Shown here piece by piece: positions 48,204 to 63,505 of a stretch of DNA of 64,000 nucleotides. The position numbers and the translations under genes were made by a program. The notes under the pieces are model-generated. The model saw only the letters and a list, made by a program, of their open reading frames with translations, was not told where the DNA came from and searched no databases. Each line of letters starts with the position of its first letter. Within the stretch, counting starts at the first letter, position 1. Source of the DNA: Escherichia phage DT571/2; the sequence record NC_047749.1. One strand, written 5' to 3'.

Positions 48204-48941
48204 TTATTCTCCAGGAACAGTAGGATTAACTGTCACAGCACATGTAGTAGAGTCCTTGCTTACTTGCTTACTATCTGTTACAGTTACTTTATAAGAGCCG
48301 GCATCCTCAGCTGCTGCTGCAGGCTTAGTATAGGTAGCTTCTGAAGCATCCGGAATAGGAGAACCATCTTTAGTCCATGCATAAGTATATGGACCAGTAC
48401 CACCAGTTGCAGTAACAGAAAGTGTTAATGCTGCTCCCTCTTCGACTGACATGCTAGCAGCTAAATCTGTAGAAAGAGTTAATGGTGGAATAACCGTAGT
48501 CACACACTCAACAGACGTTATACTAGCTTGTTTACTATCAGTAACTACTACTTTATAAGTACCAGCGTCTTCCGCAGCTGCTGTAGCTTTAGTAAAGTTA
48601 GGTCCTGATGCTTCTAGAGGAGAACCATCCTTAGTCCAAGCATACGTATATGGAGCTGTACCGCCACTAACTGTTACGCTTAGATTAATTGCCGCTCCAG
48701 TATCAACTGCCAGAGTGCTATCTAGATCCTTAGTAAAAGCCAGAGGAGGAAATGCTTTATCATAAGCCTCTACAAATTTCTTCCATACTTTACGGTTAGT
48801 ATGCGCAGATGAAAGTCCTAGTTCTCTACGCAGAAAAGCATAGCTAGGAACATATTCATGCGCAGCGACCGTAGCAAAGAAGATATGAGATTCTGGCAGT
48901 TTTTCACCAAAAATGGTCTTTAGACCATTATAATCAATCAT
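48204..48941 (-). CDS. Capsid decoration protein (pb10-like) with two tandem Ig-like domains
   Basis: Two ~70-aa repeats (LSVTVSGGTAPYTYAWTKDGSP...YKVVVTDSKQ and LSVTATGGTGPYTYAWTKDGSP...YKVTVTDSKQ) after an N-terminal domain. Confidence 0.6.
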   Translation of the reverse strand: MIDYNGLKTIFGEKLPESHIFFATVAAHEYVPSYAFLRRELGLSSAHTNRKVWKKFVEAYDKAFPPLAFTKDLDSTLAVDTGAAINLSVTVSGGTAPYTYAWTKDGSPLEASGPNFTKATAAAEDAGTYKVVVTDSKQASITSVECVTTVIPPLTLSTDLAASMSVEEGAALTLSVTATGGTGPYTYAWTKDGSPIPDASEATYTKPAAAAEDAGSYKVTVTDSKQVSKDSTTCAVTVNPTVPGE

Positions 48942-50155
48942 TCTTTATCTCCCTCGGTGGAACCTTGAGGTCTACCACCTTCTTGACCAGATACACCTGT
49001 TGCAGAACCAGCAACGTTAGCAGGAATACGAATCCTATTCATCTGCTCATCATCTAAAGGTTCAAGGTTCAGCTCTAAACGAGCTTCGTTACCAGTCATA
49101 ATACCATTATTAACCAATGAGGTTAAATGTTTAGCCTCAGCTTCTTTATCTGGTGTTAATGCAGCTACCTCCTTAGTATTAGGGGTAATCTTATAACCAA
49201 AAAAGAAAGTAAGAGAACTAGTCAGTTTGTTCAGCATAGGAATGATAGTCATATAGTAGAACAATTCGATGTTTGGTCGAATATTCGCATTATTACCACC
49301 ATCAATCAGTACTTGCGGAACACCAAAGGCTAGACAGATAGATTTATTAAATCCTGCGATGTCTTCCTTAAAGTCTAGATCTTTAAAAGAGGATATTTGG
49401 GAGTACGGTTTAGCTTTCATACCACCATCTAGAATCAGGACAGAAGACTGACCCGTACTAGGATTATAATCGAGTTGTAATTCTTCTTGTTTACGCTCAC
49501 GCAATTTCTTGTTCAGGATTTCATCCGTTTCAAGAATAAGACCAATCACGGTTCCGTTATCTAGGAACTTCTCTTTAAAGTTAAGCATTTTAGAACGCTT
49601 CTCAAGAGAGTCAATAACAGTAGCAACACGAGATTGTCCAGAAATTTGAGAATTTGTGCCACACACGTAACTGTTATCCTTTATAAAGATAATCTCATCT
49701 ACGCGATAGTTTATCTGATTATTAAATATAAATTTTTTGATAAACTTATTGGCATCTGCCTCGACCTGCATGAGAGCGGCCGGGACATGGTAAAGCGATG
49801 TGCCATCCCAATAGATGTATGCACAACCCTCAAAAAGTAGGTCAGTGACTACAAGTCTACGGAATGTGCTTATATCCATGAATGGATTAGGTCGTACATT
49901 TAAGAGAGTGTCTAGAGTCTTTGTTTTGACGCCATTAGCGTACGTAACAATATTATATTTATCTCCGACAGTATAAGAACACTCCGCCGCACTATCTATA
50001 ACCATATTGGCAGTTCGATTGAGAATCTCAATCTTGCTATAGGCTTGTCCAGTGGTAAAAGGCTTACGGTTAGTGCGATGACTAACTGGTTCCATGTCTC
50101 TTATAATACGTTGACCCGGATTTAGCTTTTCAGTAATCCAGCTTTTAAAACCCAT
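48938..50155 (-). CDS. Portal protein (T5 pb7-like, 405 aa)
   Basis: Size and position between terminase and protease. Confidence 0.7.
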   Translation of the reverse strand: MGFKSWITEKLNPGQRIIRDMEPVSHRTNRKPFTTGQAYSKIEILNRTANMVIDSAAECSYTVGDKYNIVTYANGVKTKTLDTLLNVRPNPFMDISTFRRLVVTDLLFEGCAYIYWDGTSLYHVPAALMQVEADANKFIKKFIFNNQINYRVDEIIFIKDNSYVCGTNSQISGQSRVATVIDSLEKRSKMLNFKEKFLDNGTVIGLILETDEILNKKLRERKQEELQLDYNPSTGQSSVLILDGGMKAKPYSQISSFKDLDFKEDIAGFNKSICLAFGVPQVLIDGGNNANIRPNIELFYYMTIIPMLNKLTSSLTFFFGYKITPNTKEVAALTPDKEAEAKHLTSLVNNGIMTGNEARLELNLEPLDDEQMNRIRIPANVAGSATGVSGQEGGRPQGSTEGDKE

Positions 50156-50607
50156 TATAAGAACCTTGCGAATCCTGATTTTGTTTCAGTCTTGACTTGT
50201 GTCTTTTCTTGAGGATTCTGTAATTTGTCTTTCTGCTTTTGAACCCATGCTTTCTGTTTATCAGCAGAAAATAATGGAGGTTCTTTCGTGTAAACCTTAT
50301 GTAATAGTTGGTGATGGTGCTGGCACAATGTTACCACGTCCCTAACTAACTCATGCTCATATTTCTTGTAGAATGCTTCCCTATTTGAAAGGACGATATT
50401 CTCATCAGTGAAATCCAGCTGGAGTTCTTTAGCAAATTTTTTTATTAGCTGAGATATAGTATGATAATGGTGAAGTTCTAGGTCTTCACTACTACCACAT
50501 ATAGCACAGCAACCATCCTTACTATACCTAGATTTTATACCATCCCTCATTATAGAGATGGCATCACGTTTGTACTTAGTATTAGTGGCCATAATCCCCC
50601 AATCCAA
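50155..50607 (-). CDS. HNH endonuclease
   Basis: CAICGSSEDLELHHYH ... CQHHHQLLHK (HNH/zinc motif). Confidence 0.7.
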   Translation of the reverse strand: MDWGIMATNTKYKRDAISIMRDGIKSRYSKDGCCAICGSSEDLELHHYHTISQLIKKFAKELQLDFTDENIVLSNREAFYKKYEHELVRDVVTLCQHHHQLLHKVYTKEPPLFSADKQKAWVQKQKDKLQNPQEKTQVKTETKSGFARFL

Positions 50608-51110
50608 AGCTACTTAGAAAGATTACTATATCCTCTAGGGCAACATTGAGATTCCATCTAATGTGGTATAGCATATATGACCCTTATTGTGTTATAGATG
50701 TAGTTTTTATTATTATAGTTATTTAATAGCACATACTCTATTCTGGGTATTTTGGCTTTAATAGCTACATCTAGTGATATAGTGTAGAGGTGTAATGTGG
50801 TGTTGCTTCCCAAACGTGTGCTCTCTGGCATTTAAATACTGTTTTTGTACGTTGGTTTACATATTCACCGACAATTTGGATTCCACGATCAGCTAATCTA
50901 ATATTTATATCTTTTATTGTTAGCTTTTGTCGACCCGTAGAATCTCCTACACCTCATGTAGAGCATTAATTTTTTCTTGTTTACGTTCTATTATGGGAGA
51001 AGTTCTCCCGATCAATGAATATAGTATACATAATCGTATCGAATTTGTAAAGGGGATTTTAAAATACAGGAATGGGATACCAACTGAGTAGTATCCCATC
51101 CTATACTTAT

Positions 51111-52427
51111 TTATTTACCACGGGAAATAGAGTAAATTCCATAGCGGAGCGCATCACAAAGGTGAGAGTTAGCATCATGACGTGGTCTTTCACGTGATAA
51201 TTTCTCTTCGCCTTCTTGGAAATCCCACTTATAGTTCTGCAATGCATGAATTAAGGAGGAACATGAGGCATCCACAATAATTTTCCCTTGCTGGAATAAC
51301 GCTTGCAAACATGCTAGACCATCTAGGACAGATTTTTTAGCCGGAGCCGACGCGATTTCATGCTCATACGCTAAGTCCTGGCGGAACTGAGCTGCTGCAG
51401 AGTCAACAAAAATACGATCAACTTTATAACGATCTATACAGTGCTGAATATAAGCAGCATGCTGAGCTGTAGTTTTCTCCGCCTGCTGGTACTCTTCTAA
51501 CACATAGTAAGTATCCGTATCGTAATGATATTTAATAGTAAGAACTGCTGTAGGATCACGATAACCAACGTCAATACCAAGCAACGTTTCGAATGCTTCA
51601 TCATCTTTAAAGAAGTGGCGCATACCTTTGAGGTCTTTAACATGATCGATAGCATTGAAAGTATCAAATATCTGGCCTTCGAATACAGAGAAGTCAGCCT
51701 CGTATTCCTGACGGAAGTAGTTTTTACTAACTGTACGACGTGCTTCCTCAATGTCATGCAAGTCAGCACGTGGGTTATCACGATATGTACCATGAATGGA
51801 TACCCAGTTAGGCAACGTATCATCAAATCCGTAGGCGTAAAACTCTTTAAACCAGTTACCTCCACGAGGGGTGGAAATAAATAGAGCCTTAGAATTAGGT
51901 TTATCTAGAGTAGGACGCAGCTGAACCCTGAAGGCATCACCACCCACGTCGGAAATTGCCGCCTCGTCAAAGATGATAAAATCGTATGAACGTCCAACTG
52001 CGGAGTCAGCCTGAGCCGCGGAAGCTAGTTTAAATAGAGAACCATTAGCTAACTCAATCTCTTTATCTTTAGCGTTTTCACGTTCGGTTTGTAGGCCGTA
52101 CTTCTTAATAAGACCACGAATCTGAGACCATCCGATATTAGCCAGTGAATAGTTAGGGGCAACTACTAGCACCTTCACATTAGGTTCCAGCAACTTTAGG
52201 AACCCAAGTGTATATGCTATAAAGGACTTACCTACACGGCGTGATACACACGCCGTTACAAAACGATGTCTAGGGTCTTCTAGCGCATTGATAATAGCTA
52301 TTTGAGGGCCATTAGGTGTAATACCCTCTTGTGCTAGTATTCCGGAAACAGGTAGACGAAAGAAACGTTTATCTACCCCGAAATCAATAACATCTACTGT
52401 ATTAACATAGGGTCTTGATACTTCCAT
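51111..52427 (-). CDS. Terminase large subunit (438 aa)
   Basis: Walker A-like VSRRVGKS; 438 aa; start overlaps stop of the small-subunit gene. Confidence 0.8.
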   Translation of the reverse strand: MEVSRPYVNTVDVIDFGVDKRFFRLPVSGILAQEGITPNGPQIAIINALEDPRHRFVTACVSRRVGKSFIAYTLGFLKLLEPNVKVLVVAPNYSLANIGWSQIRGLIKKYGLQTERENAKDKEIELANGSLFKLASAAQADSAVGRSYDFIIFDEAAISDVGGDAFRVQLRPTLDKPNSKALFISTPRGGNWFKEFYAYGFDDTLPNWVSIHGTYRDNPRADLHDIEEARRTVSKNYFRQEYEADFSVFEGQIFDTFNAIDHVKDLKGMRHFFKDDEAFETLLGIDVGYRDPTAVLTIKYHYDTDTYYVLEEYQQAEKTTAQHAAYIQHCIDRYKVDRIFVDSAAAQFRQDLAYEHEIASAPAKKSVLDGLACLQALFQQGKIIVDASCSSLIHALQNYKWDFQEGEEKLSRERPRHDANSHLCDALRYGIYSISRGK

Positions 52428-52909
52428 TACTTCTTACCTCCAGTAGCTAGGGAAGTAATTAAGTCCATGTAGTTTTGGTCCCCAGCTCCAGCAATAATGT
52501 TATTCTGGATATTGGTCTGGTTAGCAGGAGCACGGACAGCAGCTTTAGCTTTTTCTAACTCTACCATCATCTTCATTTCTTCCATCTTCATCTTGTGTGC
52601 CTTCCAGAGAATATCCATAATATCCTGGTCAGAACCCATGCCAGTTTCTTCTAGCTCCTCTAGTTTACGTTTAATAACTTCGTCTAGAACACCAAACAAA
52701 CGATCCCTATTACGGAATCCACTCTCCATAAAAATATCGTTTAAGTAGTTCTTAACTTCACTACGATTCATAATATCTCGAAAAGCAATTTCAGACATTC
52801 CAAGACTACGTGCGGCAGAAGGCACATCGCTGCCGCACTGTAAATAAGCTTCAATCACATCCATCCCTTCAGGGGACATAAGATCTGGTACTAATACATC
52901 ATTTGCCAT
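52427..52909 (-). CDS. Terminase small subunit
   Basis: HTH-like [17 protein letters not shown]; immediately upstream of and overlapping the large subunit. Confidence 0.55.
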
Positions 52910-52919
52910 ATTTCCTCCT

Positions 52920-54680
52920 TTAGGTAAGGCGTTGAACTGTTACTCGTAGTCTCGGTAAGAAAACTGCTGAACCTAAACTAACGTGTAGTATAACACCTAA
53001 TTCTGCATTACCATTACCAAGATTTTTTATTGTATATATAAAACTATTTCTACTAAAAGCTCCGCTGTCTGGAGTATATTTATAAGCAGAGGTAGTATGG
53101 AAAGGTACTAACTTTCCAGGAGGAAGAACTAAAATTTGGTGAAATATAGCATCTCCTCCTGTATAACTTTGTGATTTTCTTCCTTGCACCTGAAAAACAC
53201 TACCATTCCACGTATTTACTGGTAACCCAGCAACATTAAGGTTACCAGATAGTATTTCACTAGTTAATATAACAGTAGAGTTATTATTTGGCAGACCTAA
53301 TCCAACTGTTGCTAGGGATTTATAAACATTACCAGTGCCTGGGTATGTCGGAGTAATATCGTTACCAATATAGGCGCTAGCCACGTTACCAGATAATAGG
53401 CGTAAAGGTACTGATGAAGGCCCCCAGACAACACCATTCTCATTACCAATAGTATTATTATTAGAGTTTACGTACCAAGTCTTACCAGCAGAGAACTTAT
53501 AAATACTAAGTTGTGCTCTTGTACCACTATAGTTGACTGGTGCCCATATAGATCCTTTATTGGAACATACAAATTCACATCTTCCAGTAGTATCCCCAAA
53601 CACTCCATCATGAGCAGCGTTTACTCCAATATACTCCATATCAGCACGAGAAGTTAGGTTTCCTAAAGCATTCTGATTAATAAACTTCCAACTAGTAGTA
53701 GATAACTTAACTCCCTTAATAGTAAAGTTGGACGGAGAAATTATTATGTCAGAACCCGTGAAAGGGTTACTAGAAACAGACATACCACCGTTAGAATACC
53801 TTAGGTTCAGTACATACCATATAACTTTTGTAGGAGTTACTCCGTAGCCATCTTGAACTATTTTTGTATTAGCTGATTGACTTGCTAACTTAGTAGCAGA
53901 ACCTCTACAAACATACCTATTTCCACCATCACTAAAGTGCTGTACTATATTGCTAGGAATTGTTTGTTTGTACCCAACATACCCCCTAATGTTAGAATTA
54001 CATACATAAAACCATTCATGGCCACGTTTACCAGCCCCCATTGGAGCCATCCAGTTAGGATTCCAATAGTACGTATCACCTGAAGATATAGGAACGGAAG
54101 AACTTCCTATAGGATACCCTAGTTGTTTGAAGGTTTCAGCTACAGTAGCACCCACAGGTGCACCACCCCCCGGTCTTACAACACCATGGTAAGTACTATG
54201 TAGTACAGTACCACCTGTACCACTTCTAGCTATAGATTCTTCATGCCCCAGAGAACTATTATAAGAATAAGTACCTGAAGCTAGACTATTCCCAAAAGCA
54301 AATCCAGCAGTTTGACTTAAACTAGCAAACGATCTATAGGGGTCAGCCTGAGTAGAAGAAAGAAATTGTCCAACTTGGGATTGAGTACCATTCAAGAAAC
54401 CACGATGAGTACCATTAACTTCTATAGCTGTTAGTATAACCCTACCAGGATCATTGCTCTTTAGGTTAACTATATCAGAAGGCATTTGGCATACATAGAA
54501 ACCATTCCCAGCACTACTTAATGCACTCTCATAAGTGCTTTCTACTAATACGAAGGGCATATCAGAATGAAAAATAGTATTAGTACTAGGGTTTTTATGA
54601 GCATTAATATCTCCACCACTAGCAGTATTTAGTGACAATACAGTTTTACCATCACTATATTTTCCAGCGAAAAAACCCAT
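52920..54680 (-). CDS. Receptor-binding tail protein (pb5-like, 586 aa)
   Basis: Last late gene, divergent from the lipoprotein gene as for oad/llp in T5; Gly/Ser/Asn-rich. Receptor cannot be told from sequence. Confidence 0.6.
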
Positions 54681-61185: not shown

Positions 61186-61365
61186 ATAATAACTATAAAA
61201 ATAATCACCGTTAAAATAATCACTATAAAAATAATCACCATTAAAATAATAACTATAGAAATAATCACCATTATAATAATCACCATTAAAATAATCACTA
61301 TAAAAATAATCACCATTAAAATAATCACTATAAAAATAATCACCATTATTATAATCACTATAAGA
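61186..61365. repeat. Tandem array, ~12 copies of a 15-bp AT-rich unit (ATAATCAC[C/T][A/G]TTAAA / ATAATCACTATAAAA)
   Basis: Contiguous 15-bp periodicity read directly from the sequence. Confidence 0.9.
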
Positions 61366-61401
61366 AACTATCGGCTTAAGTGAGAACCACTATCATTTAA
61401 G

Positions 61402-61510
61402 TTATCCACAACGTTATCCACAGCACAAAATGATTTGACACGATAGGCGGCGATATAAAGATTTATCCACAGACTTATCCACAGGTTATCCTACTGTATA
61501 TTTATCCAGG
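61402..61510. promoter_or_regulatory. DnaA-box cluster (4 perfect TTATCCACA plus 2 variants)
   Basis: TTATCCACA at 61402, 61414, 61463, 61475; variants ttatcctac 61486 and ttatccagg 61502. Confidence 0.8.
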
Positions 61511-61880
61511 GTAAAAAGATAGTGTTTACAACTGCAATCAATTTTGAGCGGCCTAAAACGCTTTCTAACGAGCTGATCGCTGTAGGGTAATATTAAAGTA
61601 AAGCCTTTACCCGTCGGCCTAGAGGCTTCGCCGTGTTTTGCTCTTTACTGCACCGCTGCGCGGTTAGCATAAAACTAGGTGTTAGGCAAGAAAAATAAAA
61701 AGTAAAGTAAACGTTGCCCCTAGAAAGAAAATAATTTTACCGGTAACATCGAAAGCGGGTAATAATTAACCTAATGTAAAGTTTTGTAAGGCCCGCCATA
61801 ATCAGCGGCCTTTTTTGTTATACTGCCCTTACACCGTTTAAGGACGGTTAAAAATTTCCCGAAAAATTTGGAGGCTTAAA

Positions 61881-62060
61881 ATGGTTATTTTTCGATCTAT
61901 TCTGGCGGGTATCTTGGGCGCTATTTTAACTCTATTTGCTACCGCTTACGGTATTCAAGATTCTTATTGCGGTTTAGTAAATACTAAACCTATGGTTATT
62001 ATTGGCGCGGGTATCGCTGTTTTTTCTTATTTGCTGGGCTGCATGAATAAAGGAGAATAA
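61881..62060 (+). CDS. Small membrane protein (59 aa)
   Basis: SD ggagg 6 nt upstream of ATG; two hydrophobic helices. Confidence 0.45.
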   Translation: MVIFRSILAGILGAILTLFATAYGIQDSYCGLVNTKPMVIIGAGIAVFSYLLGCMNKGE

Positions 62061-62848: not shown

Positions 62849-62903
62849 GGGGCACAACTATCAGGGAGTGCCCCTGATTCTCAAATGAGAATCATTCTCA
62901 TTT
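62849..62903. repeat. Hairpin (ggggcac/gtgcccc) followed by a perfect 21-bp palindrome aaatgagaatcattctcattt
   Basis: Palindrome at 62883-62903 is related to the 23-bp array units downstream. Confidence 0.8.
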
Positions 62904-63136
62904 GACCGCGCCCGCGATGGTTAGCACACTAATGATTAGGGTGTTACGTGTCGCCTTGTGTGATCGTTAGCGGGCTAACTAATTTTCAAGCCTCCTCCAG
63001 ATTTGCCCTTGTTTTAGTATCCCCATCAAAATAAAACGCGTTAGAAAGCGATTCAGGGCGTTTTAGGCCTATATTAGAATTATTCACTGCGTAGGAATAC
63101 TGTATATTTATACAGTAGAATAACCTGGGGATAAGT

Positions 63137-63208
63137 CGGTGGATAACGCTTCAAAATGGCTAGAATTTTGTCAAGGCAAATCGTGCTGTTGATAAGTCTG
63201 TGGATAAC
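63137..63208. promoter_or_regulatory. Second DnaA-box group, opposite orientation (tgtggataa)
   Basis: gtggataac 63139-63147 (8/9) and perfect tgtggataa 63200-63208. Confidence 0.65.
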
Positions 63209-63240
63209 TTAAATAACAGTGTTTCTCACTTCCGTTTTTA

Positions 63241-63505
63241 AATGCGAATCATTATCATTTGCATTCCACTTCTTAAATGAGAATCATTTCACTTCTTGAA
63301 TAGTTCTCATTCCCTTTCTTAAATGAGAATCATTTCACTTCTTGAATAGTTCTCATTTCACTTCTTGAATAGTTCTCATTCCACTTCTTAAATGAGAATC
63401 ATTCCACTTCTTAAATGAGAATCATTCCACCTCTTAAATGAGAATGATTATCATTCGCATTCCACTTCTTAAATGCGAATGATAATCATTCTCATTCGCA
63501 TTCCG
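63241..63505. repeat. Tandem array of ~9 copies of a 23-bp unit in two variants, flanked by palindromic aatg(c/a)gaat..attcgcatt elements
   Basis: Variants CCACTTCTTAAATGAGAATCATT and TCACTTCTTGAATAGTTCTCATT. Confidence 0.9.

Follow-up and report, generated by a model that had tools for sequence, protein, structure and literature searches.

In phage T5 the major nicks follow the consensus 5'-R/GCGCRGG, and sciA and sciB are late-region loci that have been tied genetically to nicking (PMC3517423). Homing-endonuclease genes of the T5orf172 type are abundant in T5-like phages, where they lie mostly near terminase genes and mark recombination boundaries (PMC10448857). Both kinds of gene seem to meet in Escherichia phage DT571/2 (NC_047749.1), of which a stretch of 64,000 nucleotides (nt) was analysed (the window, to which all positions refer): between the gene for the terminase large subunit (terL) and the portal gene lie a gene for an HNH protein and a gap of 503 bp in which no open reading frame (ORF) reaches 60 amino acids. 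Across 48900-52500 the sequence agrees at 100% identity with Escherichia phage DT57C (NC_027356.1, 92965-96565), a Tequintavirus and close relative of T5, and the locus sequence is called DT57C in the comparisons below. Very probably, the locus holds two unrelated nuclease genes with separate histories, i.e. a conserved sciA and a decayed homing-endonuclease gene.

The closest described counterpart of the HNH gene is T5 SciA (T5.153 / T5p149), and that of the gap is the T5 gene T5.154 / T5p150 with its alleles in Shivani (gp086), TrudiRoth (bas30_0003) and SP01 (gp020), which are free-standing T5orf172 genes with CapR / treble-clef zinc-ribbon repeats. With these alleles DT57C shares the insertion point, the 5' leader, a palindrome and the ribosome-binding site (RBS), as well as the first 48 codons (98%) and the last 21 codons, which overlap the sciA start; the alleles are intact, whereas the DT57C copy is dead, with its start codon lost, its frame broken, its core deleted and its middle diverged. 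Further comparisons are offered by the Seg/Mob endonucleases of phage T4 (SegF, SegG, SegE), whose action leads to localized marker exclusion and to the co-conversion of flanking genes, and by the HK97 gp74-type HNH proteins, which make cos cuts.

The gap between terL and sciA

At the position of the gap T5 has an extra intact gene, T5.154, annotated "endonuclease", whose product has T5orf172, MUG113, CapR, DUF4379 and treble-clef zinc-finger domains and matches endonuclease PHROGs. The gap aligns end to end with this gene except for indels and a deletion of ~250 bp, and over its first ~320 nt, counted from the terL stop, DT57C differs from T5 by two 1-nt insertions and one substitution only (99-100% identity). 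By tblastn, T5.154 is recovered from the gap in pieces: amino acids 49-101 at 98% identity, with Met54 replaced by Thr, amino acids ~140-163 in another frame and with stops, and amino acids 257-277 at 81%. Amino acids 164-256, i.e. the T5orf172 catalytic core with most of the PF10544 and PF13455 matches (amino acids 179-264), are deleted in DT57C, the ~250-bp deletion lying at about 50653/50652. The start codon, which is ATG in T5, SP01, TrudiRoth, SA001, smaug and the metagenomic contig L035, is ACG in DT57C, and the dead endonuclease frame stops at a TAG (50773-50771); with these and further frameshifts and stops, the DT57C copy has no intact ORF with a start codon. Its position and flanks are those of the intact members, the junctions being shared with T5, SP01 and TrudiRoth. 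Since the catalytic core and the ORF are lost but the position is shared, it should be regarded as a pseudogene of the T5orf172 family and not as a member of it, and the remainder of the gap (~420 bp) is, judged by its sequence, a T5orf172-type homing-endonuclease pseudogene. An earlier note on this DNA had taken the spacer for either a decayed mobile-element remnant or a regulatory region, and it turns out to be both (a promoter and terminator of ~95 bp and a pseudogene of ~420 bp); the translated alignment for degraded ORFs that it proposed did find the remains of T5.154, with frameshifts and stops and with amino acids 164-256 gone. The features of the gap are the following.

50608-51110, minus strand: the gap, an ORF-free stretch of 503 bp (ORF list)
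50593-51014, minus strand: predicted pseudogene of a free-standing homing endonuclease of T5orf172/GIY-YIG type (DNA alignment to T5, tblastn, empty site)
50994-51008, minus strand: perfect 15-nt palindrome GGGAGAAcTTCTCCC at the 5' edge of the cassette (read directly)
50936-50947, minus strand: former RBS GGAG (50947-50944) and former start codon, now ACG (50938-50936) (allele comparison)
50652-50794, minus strand: diverged middle of the pseudogene, the zinc-ribbon / CapR-like repeat region (alignment to three intact alleles)
51070-51101, minus strand: intrinsic-terminator-like hairpin after terL with a 13-pair stem, GGATGGGATAC...GTATCCCATTC (scan)
51023-51051, minus strand: sigma-70-like promoter, TTTACA (51051-51046), 17-nt spacer, TATACT (51028-51023) (scan)

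The limits of the inserted cassette follow from phages that lack it. In the cassette-free phages GreteKellenberger and S114 the spacer is ~117 bp long and reads ...TATACTATATTCAT followed directly by ACAGTTGAGGAGAATACTGTG, the GTG being the sciA start, and the same ~117-bp spacer with terminator and promoter is also found in 19 T5-like loci from IMG/VR. This empty site fixes the left boundary of the cassette between 51015 and 51014, and the cassette therefore lies exactly between the -10 box and sciA (51014-50593), using the resident promoter and supplying the RBS of sciA, while the last ~60 nt of the pseudogene overlap the sciA start. The palindrome GGGAGAAcTTCTCCC is shared by all alleles that have the endonuclease and is missing at empty sites; it could be a binding site or a hairpin at the 5' end of the mRNA.

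The first ~95 bp of the gap are occupied by the terminator and the promoter. The hairpin, which is followed by a T-tract reaching about 51060, is identical in sequence in DT57C, T5, SP01, TrudiRoth, GreteKellenberger and S114, and is annotated as a terminator in Shivani. The promoter matches the consensus at 10 of 12 positions, with both hexamers invariant in both genera, and the annotation calls it 'putative promoter' in T5st0 and 'P40-like' in S114. Between the genera, terminator and promoter differ by no more than two spacer substitutions in Epseptimavirus-type sequences. The promoter is predicted to drive sciA and portal where the cassette is absent; where the endonuclease gene is present, this would be read first.

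The pseudogene has not diverged evenly. Its 5' third is 99.5% identical to T5, whereas the middle (~140 nt, with deletions of 34 bp and 7 bp) reaches only 67-74% with any of the three intact alleles; among these, identity is 81-92%. In this middle (50652-50794) the hydrophobic and zinc-ligand positions are spared, which suggests that it diverged while still coding. The source of the DT57C middle would then seem to be a fourth allele, not yet sampled, and not the T5 allele, or else later recombination. No paralogue of the endonuclease or of its diverged middle occurs elsewhere in the window, which excludes ectopic conversion from a paralogue within the window.

As for T5.154 itself, its RefSeq entry (NC_005859; locus L002, 3183-4016; 277 amino acids) starts within the terminator stem of terL and reads through the annotated promoter. 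Met54, an ATG lying 53 codons further on, has a GGAG RBS and is used as the start in Shivani (224 amino acids); the RefSeq start is probably 53 codons too far upstream.

Two other readings of the gap can be set against the pseudogene. That, besides the terminator and promoter, it works as a non-coding element in its own right (a pac or other regulatory site, a structured leader or a small RNA) is improbable. The near-identity to T5 over the first ~320 nt could be taken to point that way, as could the palindrome, but in T5 the conserved 5' part codes for protein, and ~78% of T5-like phages lack the stretch beyond the promoter altogether, their spacer being ~117 bp. An active promoter would necessarily make the gap the 5' leader of a transcript of sciA and portal; however, a permissive Rfam scan of 49500-52000 for introns and riboswitches returned a single match at chance level (E = 6.9), and the genome ends, where packaging cuts are made, are far from the gap. 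A group I intron or structured RNA carrying the endonuclease was also considered and rejected, given this one Rfam match and a cassette that is intergenic and not within a gene. Considerably less probable still is that the gap encodes small proteins below the 60-amino-acid cut-off, i.e. one of 57 amino acids (50658-50831) and one of 50 amino acids (50947-51099). Both ORFs exist, and short hypothetical proteins are annotated in the corresponding stretch of SA001 and smaug, but the 50-amino-acid ORF begins inside the terminator stem and spans the promoter, the 57-amino-acid ORF is the endonuclease remnant read out of frame, no Pfam match exists for either, and the ORF annotated in SA001 is the truncated N-terminus of the endonuclease, whose start codon is lost in DT57C.

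The HNH gene and its product

The HNH gene is identified, by protein and fold comparison, as the DT57C orthologue of T5 SciA, a site-specific nicking endonuclease. Its features are the following.

50155-50592, minus strand: sciA, predicted site-specific HNH (beta-beta-alpha-metal) nicking endonuclease of 145 amino acids (PDB match, homologue alignment, DT57C annotation)
50600-50595, minus strand: sciA RBS GGGGGA, ahead of the ATG at 50592
50308-50592, minus strand: sciA 5' allele block of T5 type, the first ~285 nt of the gene (nucleotide comparison)

The protein matches the PDB entries 9qgv and 9qgx at 97% identity over residues 1-145 (phmmer, E = 7e-95). These entries (release date 2026-03-25), which are the H42Q and H42A mutants, carry the title 'SciA endonuclease from Escherichia phage T5 in complex with 10 bp DNA (GCGC sequence)', and this GCGC is the core of the major-nick consensus of T5. 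Compared with wild-type T5 SciA, only D112N and L124I differ. An AlphaFold model (mean predicted local distance difference test score, pLDDT, 77.7) recovers SciA by Foldseek with E = 8e-16 and a TM-score of 0.85 (target-normalised), and Foldseek gave no significant structural neighbour other than SciA. The DT57C record itself names the gene sciA, "nicking site-specific endonuclease". The ELHHYH motif with the catalytic histidine H42 is intact, and H41, H42, C29, C32, C90, H93, H94 and H98 are invariant across 24 homologues, of which C29, C32, C90, H93/H94 and H98 are assumed to form a zinc site. With its position between terL and portal and an identical set of conserved cysteines and histidines, the DT57C copy shows no difference of substance from its T5 orthologue.

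A search of the HNH protein against Pfam and NCBIfam gave nothing significant (best HNH_2, E = 0.5), because the copies searched did not contain PF26848, the model listed for its homologues in a large database; a PHROGs search gave a family of unknown function and weak HNH matches. The earlier note had placed the HNH ORF at 50155-50607, and a minus-strand ORF is indeed there, but the start so obtained is an in-frame TTG: the GenBank annotation begins at the ATG at 50592 (M-A-T-N...), and so do all 23 aligned homologues. At the other end, the sciA stop overlaps the portal start at 50155.

Matches to the nick consensus RGCGCRGG are not enriched in the window (4 versus 2.4 expected, not significant). 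They lie at 62004(+), 63523(-), 63850(+) and 22592(-), so that three of the four cluster at the right end of the DT57C record, where the two other long ORF-free stretches of the window lie.

Whether the HNH gene is itself mobile can be judged from its position in relatives. Of 79 related loci fetched from IMG/VR, 76 show terL, HNH and portal, and in all 76 the order is terL, HNH, portal, down to ~44% TerL and ~42% HNH protein identity; the remaining three end at a contig edge and show two adjacent genes in unchanged order, and the annotated phages agree on the position. A search of 5.8 billion proteins gave 74 HNH homologues, all with one precomputed Pfam family (PF26848), the named ones coming from T5-like phages and related Vibrio phages, and the 5' part of sciA matches in 518 phage records. 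Since the gene is present in every sampled locus, it is not recently mobile. For the earlier note, conservation of both gene and spacer across T5-like genomes would have argued against recent mobility; the comparison separates the two, with the HNH gene in every sampled locus and the spacer polymorphic. Accordingly, its word 'inserted' does not hold for the HNH gene; the spacer is the mobile part.

It is therefore extremely improbable that the HNH gene is a mobile homing endonuclease recently put between the terminase and portal genes, as the earlier note had offered. HNH nucleases are a common class of homing endonucleases, of which T5 has several (PMC10644984), and the 5' two-thirds of sciA is inherited in a strongly allelic, mosaic fashion, but against this stand the invariant position, the restriction of the family to this phage group, the overlap of its stop with the portal start, and a T5 orthologue that is the SciA nickase, solved on the GCGC nick motif. 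The note's other option, a terminase-associated packaging nuclease, did not fare well either: that the protein is of the HK97 gp74 type, required together with TerS and TerL for cutting of concatemers, is improbable. The HNH gene does lie directly beside terS and terL, as described for HK97-like phages (PMC3592412, PMC10448857), and the nicks arise late in infection (PMC3517423), suggesting a link with packaging; moreover, the T5st0 annotation puts the second nicking locus, sciB, on the terS gene. On the other hand, SciA has no detectable similarity to an HK97-style cofactor in sequence or fold beyond the HNH core, no Pfam HNH family reaches E < 0.1 with the protein, and the fold search gave only SciA itself and no other HNH protein. 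HK97 gp74-type proteins make cos cuts, whereas SciA would nick at GCGC sites spread over the genome, GCGC being the motif in the solved complexes; nick-deficient T5 mutants are reported viable (PMC3517423), and T5 packaging yields long direct terminal repeats and not cos ends (PMC10644984). Some coupling of SciA to the terminase is possible, since sciB is annotated on terS.

Distribution, linkage with sciA and proposed history

Of 440 records with a match to the T5.154 region, 74 reach a coverage of at least 80%, ~10 are decayed and ~350 are empty, counts that come from coverage classes and listed rows and not from record-by-record inspection. Most non-carriers match only 129 bp, which comprise the terL end, the terminator and the promoter. 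The intact alleles are of at least three types (T5, TrudiRoth/NR01 and SP01/PNJ1902), and the cassette is found on both Tequintavirus and Epseptimavirus backbones. The wreck of DT57C type is present in DT57C, Gostya9, SA001, smaug, three partial records and the metagenomic contig L035, always with identical deletions. The ATG and a stub of 55 codons survive in SA001, smaug and L035, which makes DT57C, with its ACG, the most decayed stage.

In more distant relatives, the terL-sciA junction carries other genes: further T5orf172+CapR genes (L033, L086), a classical GIY-YIG gene (L071) and a 78-amino-acid C-terminal remnant of it (L080, L082, L085), and a gene for a 519-amino-acid protein with zinc-ribbon, REase_MTES_1575 and Mom-like matches (L043, L066). 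From these matches, the junction appears as a recurrent landing site for unrelated nuclease genes. A different observation concerns two T5-like genomes from IMG/VR (L038, L039; ~816-2879), where terL and the HNH gene are separated by a gene for a 687-amino-acid protein. This protein is similar to the receptor-binding tail protein that DT57C encodes at 52920-54680, and the gene order is unlike that of DT57C and T5.

The presence of the cassette is linked to the allele of the neighbouring sciA. Over the first ~285 nt of sciA, T5-type and cassette-free, GreteKellenberger-type (GreteK-type) phages are only 71-72% identical, compared to 87-88% in the remainder of the gene and 95-96% at the start of the portal gene. 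The two 5' alleles have 74% amino-acid identity over the catalytic half, in genomes that are otherwise 87-99% identical here. The sciA 5' allele tracks the cassette and not the backbone of the genus. Thus, TrudiRoth and L015 have an Epseptimavirus-like terL, sciA 3' end and portal, yet carry the cassette and a T5-type sciA 5' part (77 versus 5 informative sites in TrudiRoth, 81 versus 1 in L015), while in L018, L021, L024 and L028 an empty site and a GreteK-type sciA 5' part (64-65 versus 10-11 sites) stand between T5-like flanks. A T5-type sciA 5' part at 90% identity or more is found in 81 phage records, which is close to an estimate of ~71 full cassettes of T5/TrudiRoth type plus ~10 wrecks (a tally inferred from partial listings).

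Such linkage is the product that would be expected of co-conversion during homing, and it fits the occurrence of T5orf172 genes beside terminase genes and at recombination boundaries (PMC10448857). The likeness to the Seg/Mob genes of T4 lies in an intergenic endonuclease gene beside essential genes, patchy among close relatives and with a co-inherited flank, which here would be sciA nt 1-285 (for the general pattern, see PMC10448857). The difference is that the T5/DT57C block moves also with a dead endonuclease, so that homing is not needed for the pattern.

The history that best accounts for the locus would start from sciA as an ancestral gene of T5-like phages between terL and portal, read from the conserved promoter just downstream of the terL terminator, whose product would make the site-specific single-strand nicks (R/GCGCRGG) that characterise virion DNA of the T5 type. 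Between this promoter and sciA, an ancestor of DT57C would have received a free-standing homing-endonuclease gene, coding for a nuclease of the T5orf172 subfamily of GIY-YIG nucleases with N-terminal zinc-ribbon/CapR-like DNA-binding repeats; it would have borrowed the promoter and given sciA a new RBS. By analogy with T4 Seg/Mob, it would spread in mixed infections by cutting cassette-free genomes near the insertion site, after which repair would copy in the cassette and its flank, in this case the first ~285 nt of sciA. Decay of the gene in the DT57C lineage would have followed, the shared deletions coming first (core lost, frame broken) and the change from ATG to ACG later, leaving an untranslated leader of ~420 nt between promoter and sciA. 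Site-specific cleavage and super-Mendelian inheritance are, for T5.154, inferred from its family (PMC10448857).

Several points weigh against parts of this account. The most direct comes from smaug (Salmonella phage, MT074461.1 13651-14765, locus L089; Epseptimavirus), which has a GreteK-like terL 3' end (32 versus 10 sites) and nevertheless carries the dead wreck of DT57C type with a T5-type sciA 5' part (80 versus 0 sites). Because the wreck sits on a GreteK-like backbone, the block must also move by ordinary recombination in the conserved flanks, and such recombination, without any homing, could explain the linkage between cassette and sciA, which for this reason is not taken as proof of homing. 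In addition, no experimental report was found of T5.154 cutting DNA or homing. The divergence of the pseudogene middle (67-74%, as against 99.5% in the 5' third) is not predicted by uniform neutral decay. The promoter and terminator are predictions, made from consensus matches and backed by conservation. Finally, a literature search found no paper on the SciA structures, for which the account relies on the PDB titles.

One could go further and suppose that the T5orf172 endonuclease cuts within sciA nt 1-285 or the adjacent empty site, and that the two sciA 5' alleles are its sensitive and immune forms, kept apart by homing; this is doubtful. If true, it would mean that a selfish endonuclease swaps the catalytic half of a nickase between genera, by which the choice of nick sites could change, and that the dead remnant in DT57C persists because it still protects against cutting by intact relatives.

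Gene neighbourhood and implications

The genes of the locus all lie on the minus strand, in the transcription order terS, terL, gap, HNH (sciA), portal, and the HNH gene therefore precedes the portal gene in transcription; the earlier note, which had put it after the portal gene, read the order the wrong way round. Region 48900-52500 is matched by 448 phage records. The flanking genes are the following.

52909-52427, minus strand: terS (flanking gene)
51111-52427, minus strand: terL, terminase large subunit (Pfam Terminase_6N and Terminase_6C; annotated terL in DT57C)
48938-50155, minus strand: portal protein gene (Pfam Phage_portal, E = 3e-50; annotation)

The ~0.5 kb without an ORF of at least 60 amino acids before terL was correctly seen: within 50608-51110 the longest ORFs in any frame are 57, 54 and 50 amino acids. 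In the shuffled window 75% of the sequence is free of such ORFs, so that an ORF-free stretch is ordinary for random sequence, compared to only 8.4% of the real window. ORF-free stretches of at least 500 bp number just three in the window, including the gap; the other two (61359-61998 and 62858-63468) are near the right end of the DT57C record. A further observation in the neighbourhood is the head-decoration gene dec (pb10 homologue; 48204-48941, minus strand), which has 738 bp in DT57C compared to 495 bp in T5, with two tandem Ig-like repeats (…GGTAPYTYAWTKDGSP… and …GGTGPYTYAWTKDGSP…).

On the whole, the situation is an ordinary one, in which a known nickase gene stands next to a new, previously unannotated case of a decaying free-standing homing-endonuclease gene. 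Only mildly new are the tie of the cassette to the diverged catalytic half of sciA and the reuse of the junction by unrelated nuclease genes. For annotation, it means that 94658-95175 of the DT57C record comprises a terminator, a promoter and a homing-endonuclease pseudogene, and that the HNH gene (sciA) should be left out when mobile nucleases of T5-like phages are counted. The locus provides a natural series of the life cycle of a homing endonuclease: empty, intact (in three alleles), truncated with a start codon, and truncated without one. For work on the specificity of SciA, it matters that the N-terminal catalytic half has at least three alleles, which are tied to the state of the neighbouring cassette.

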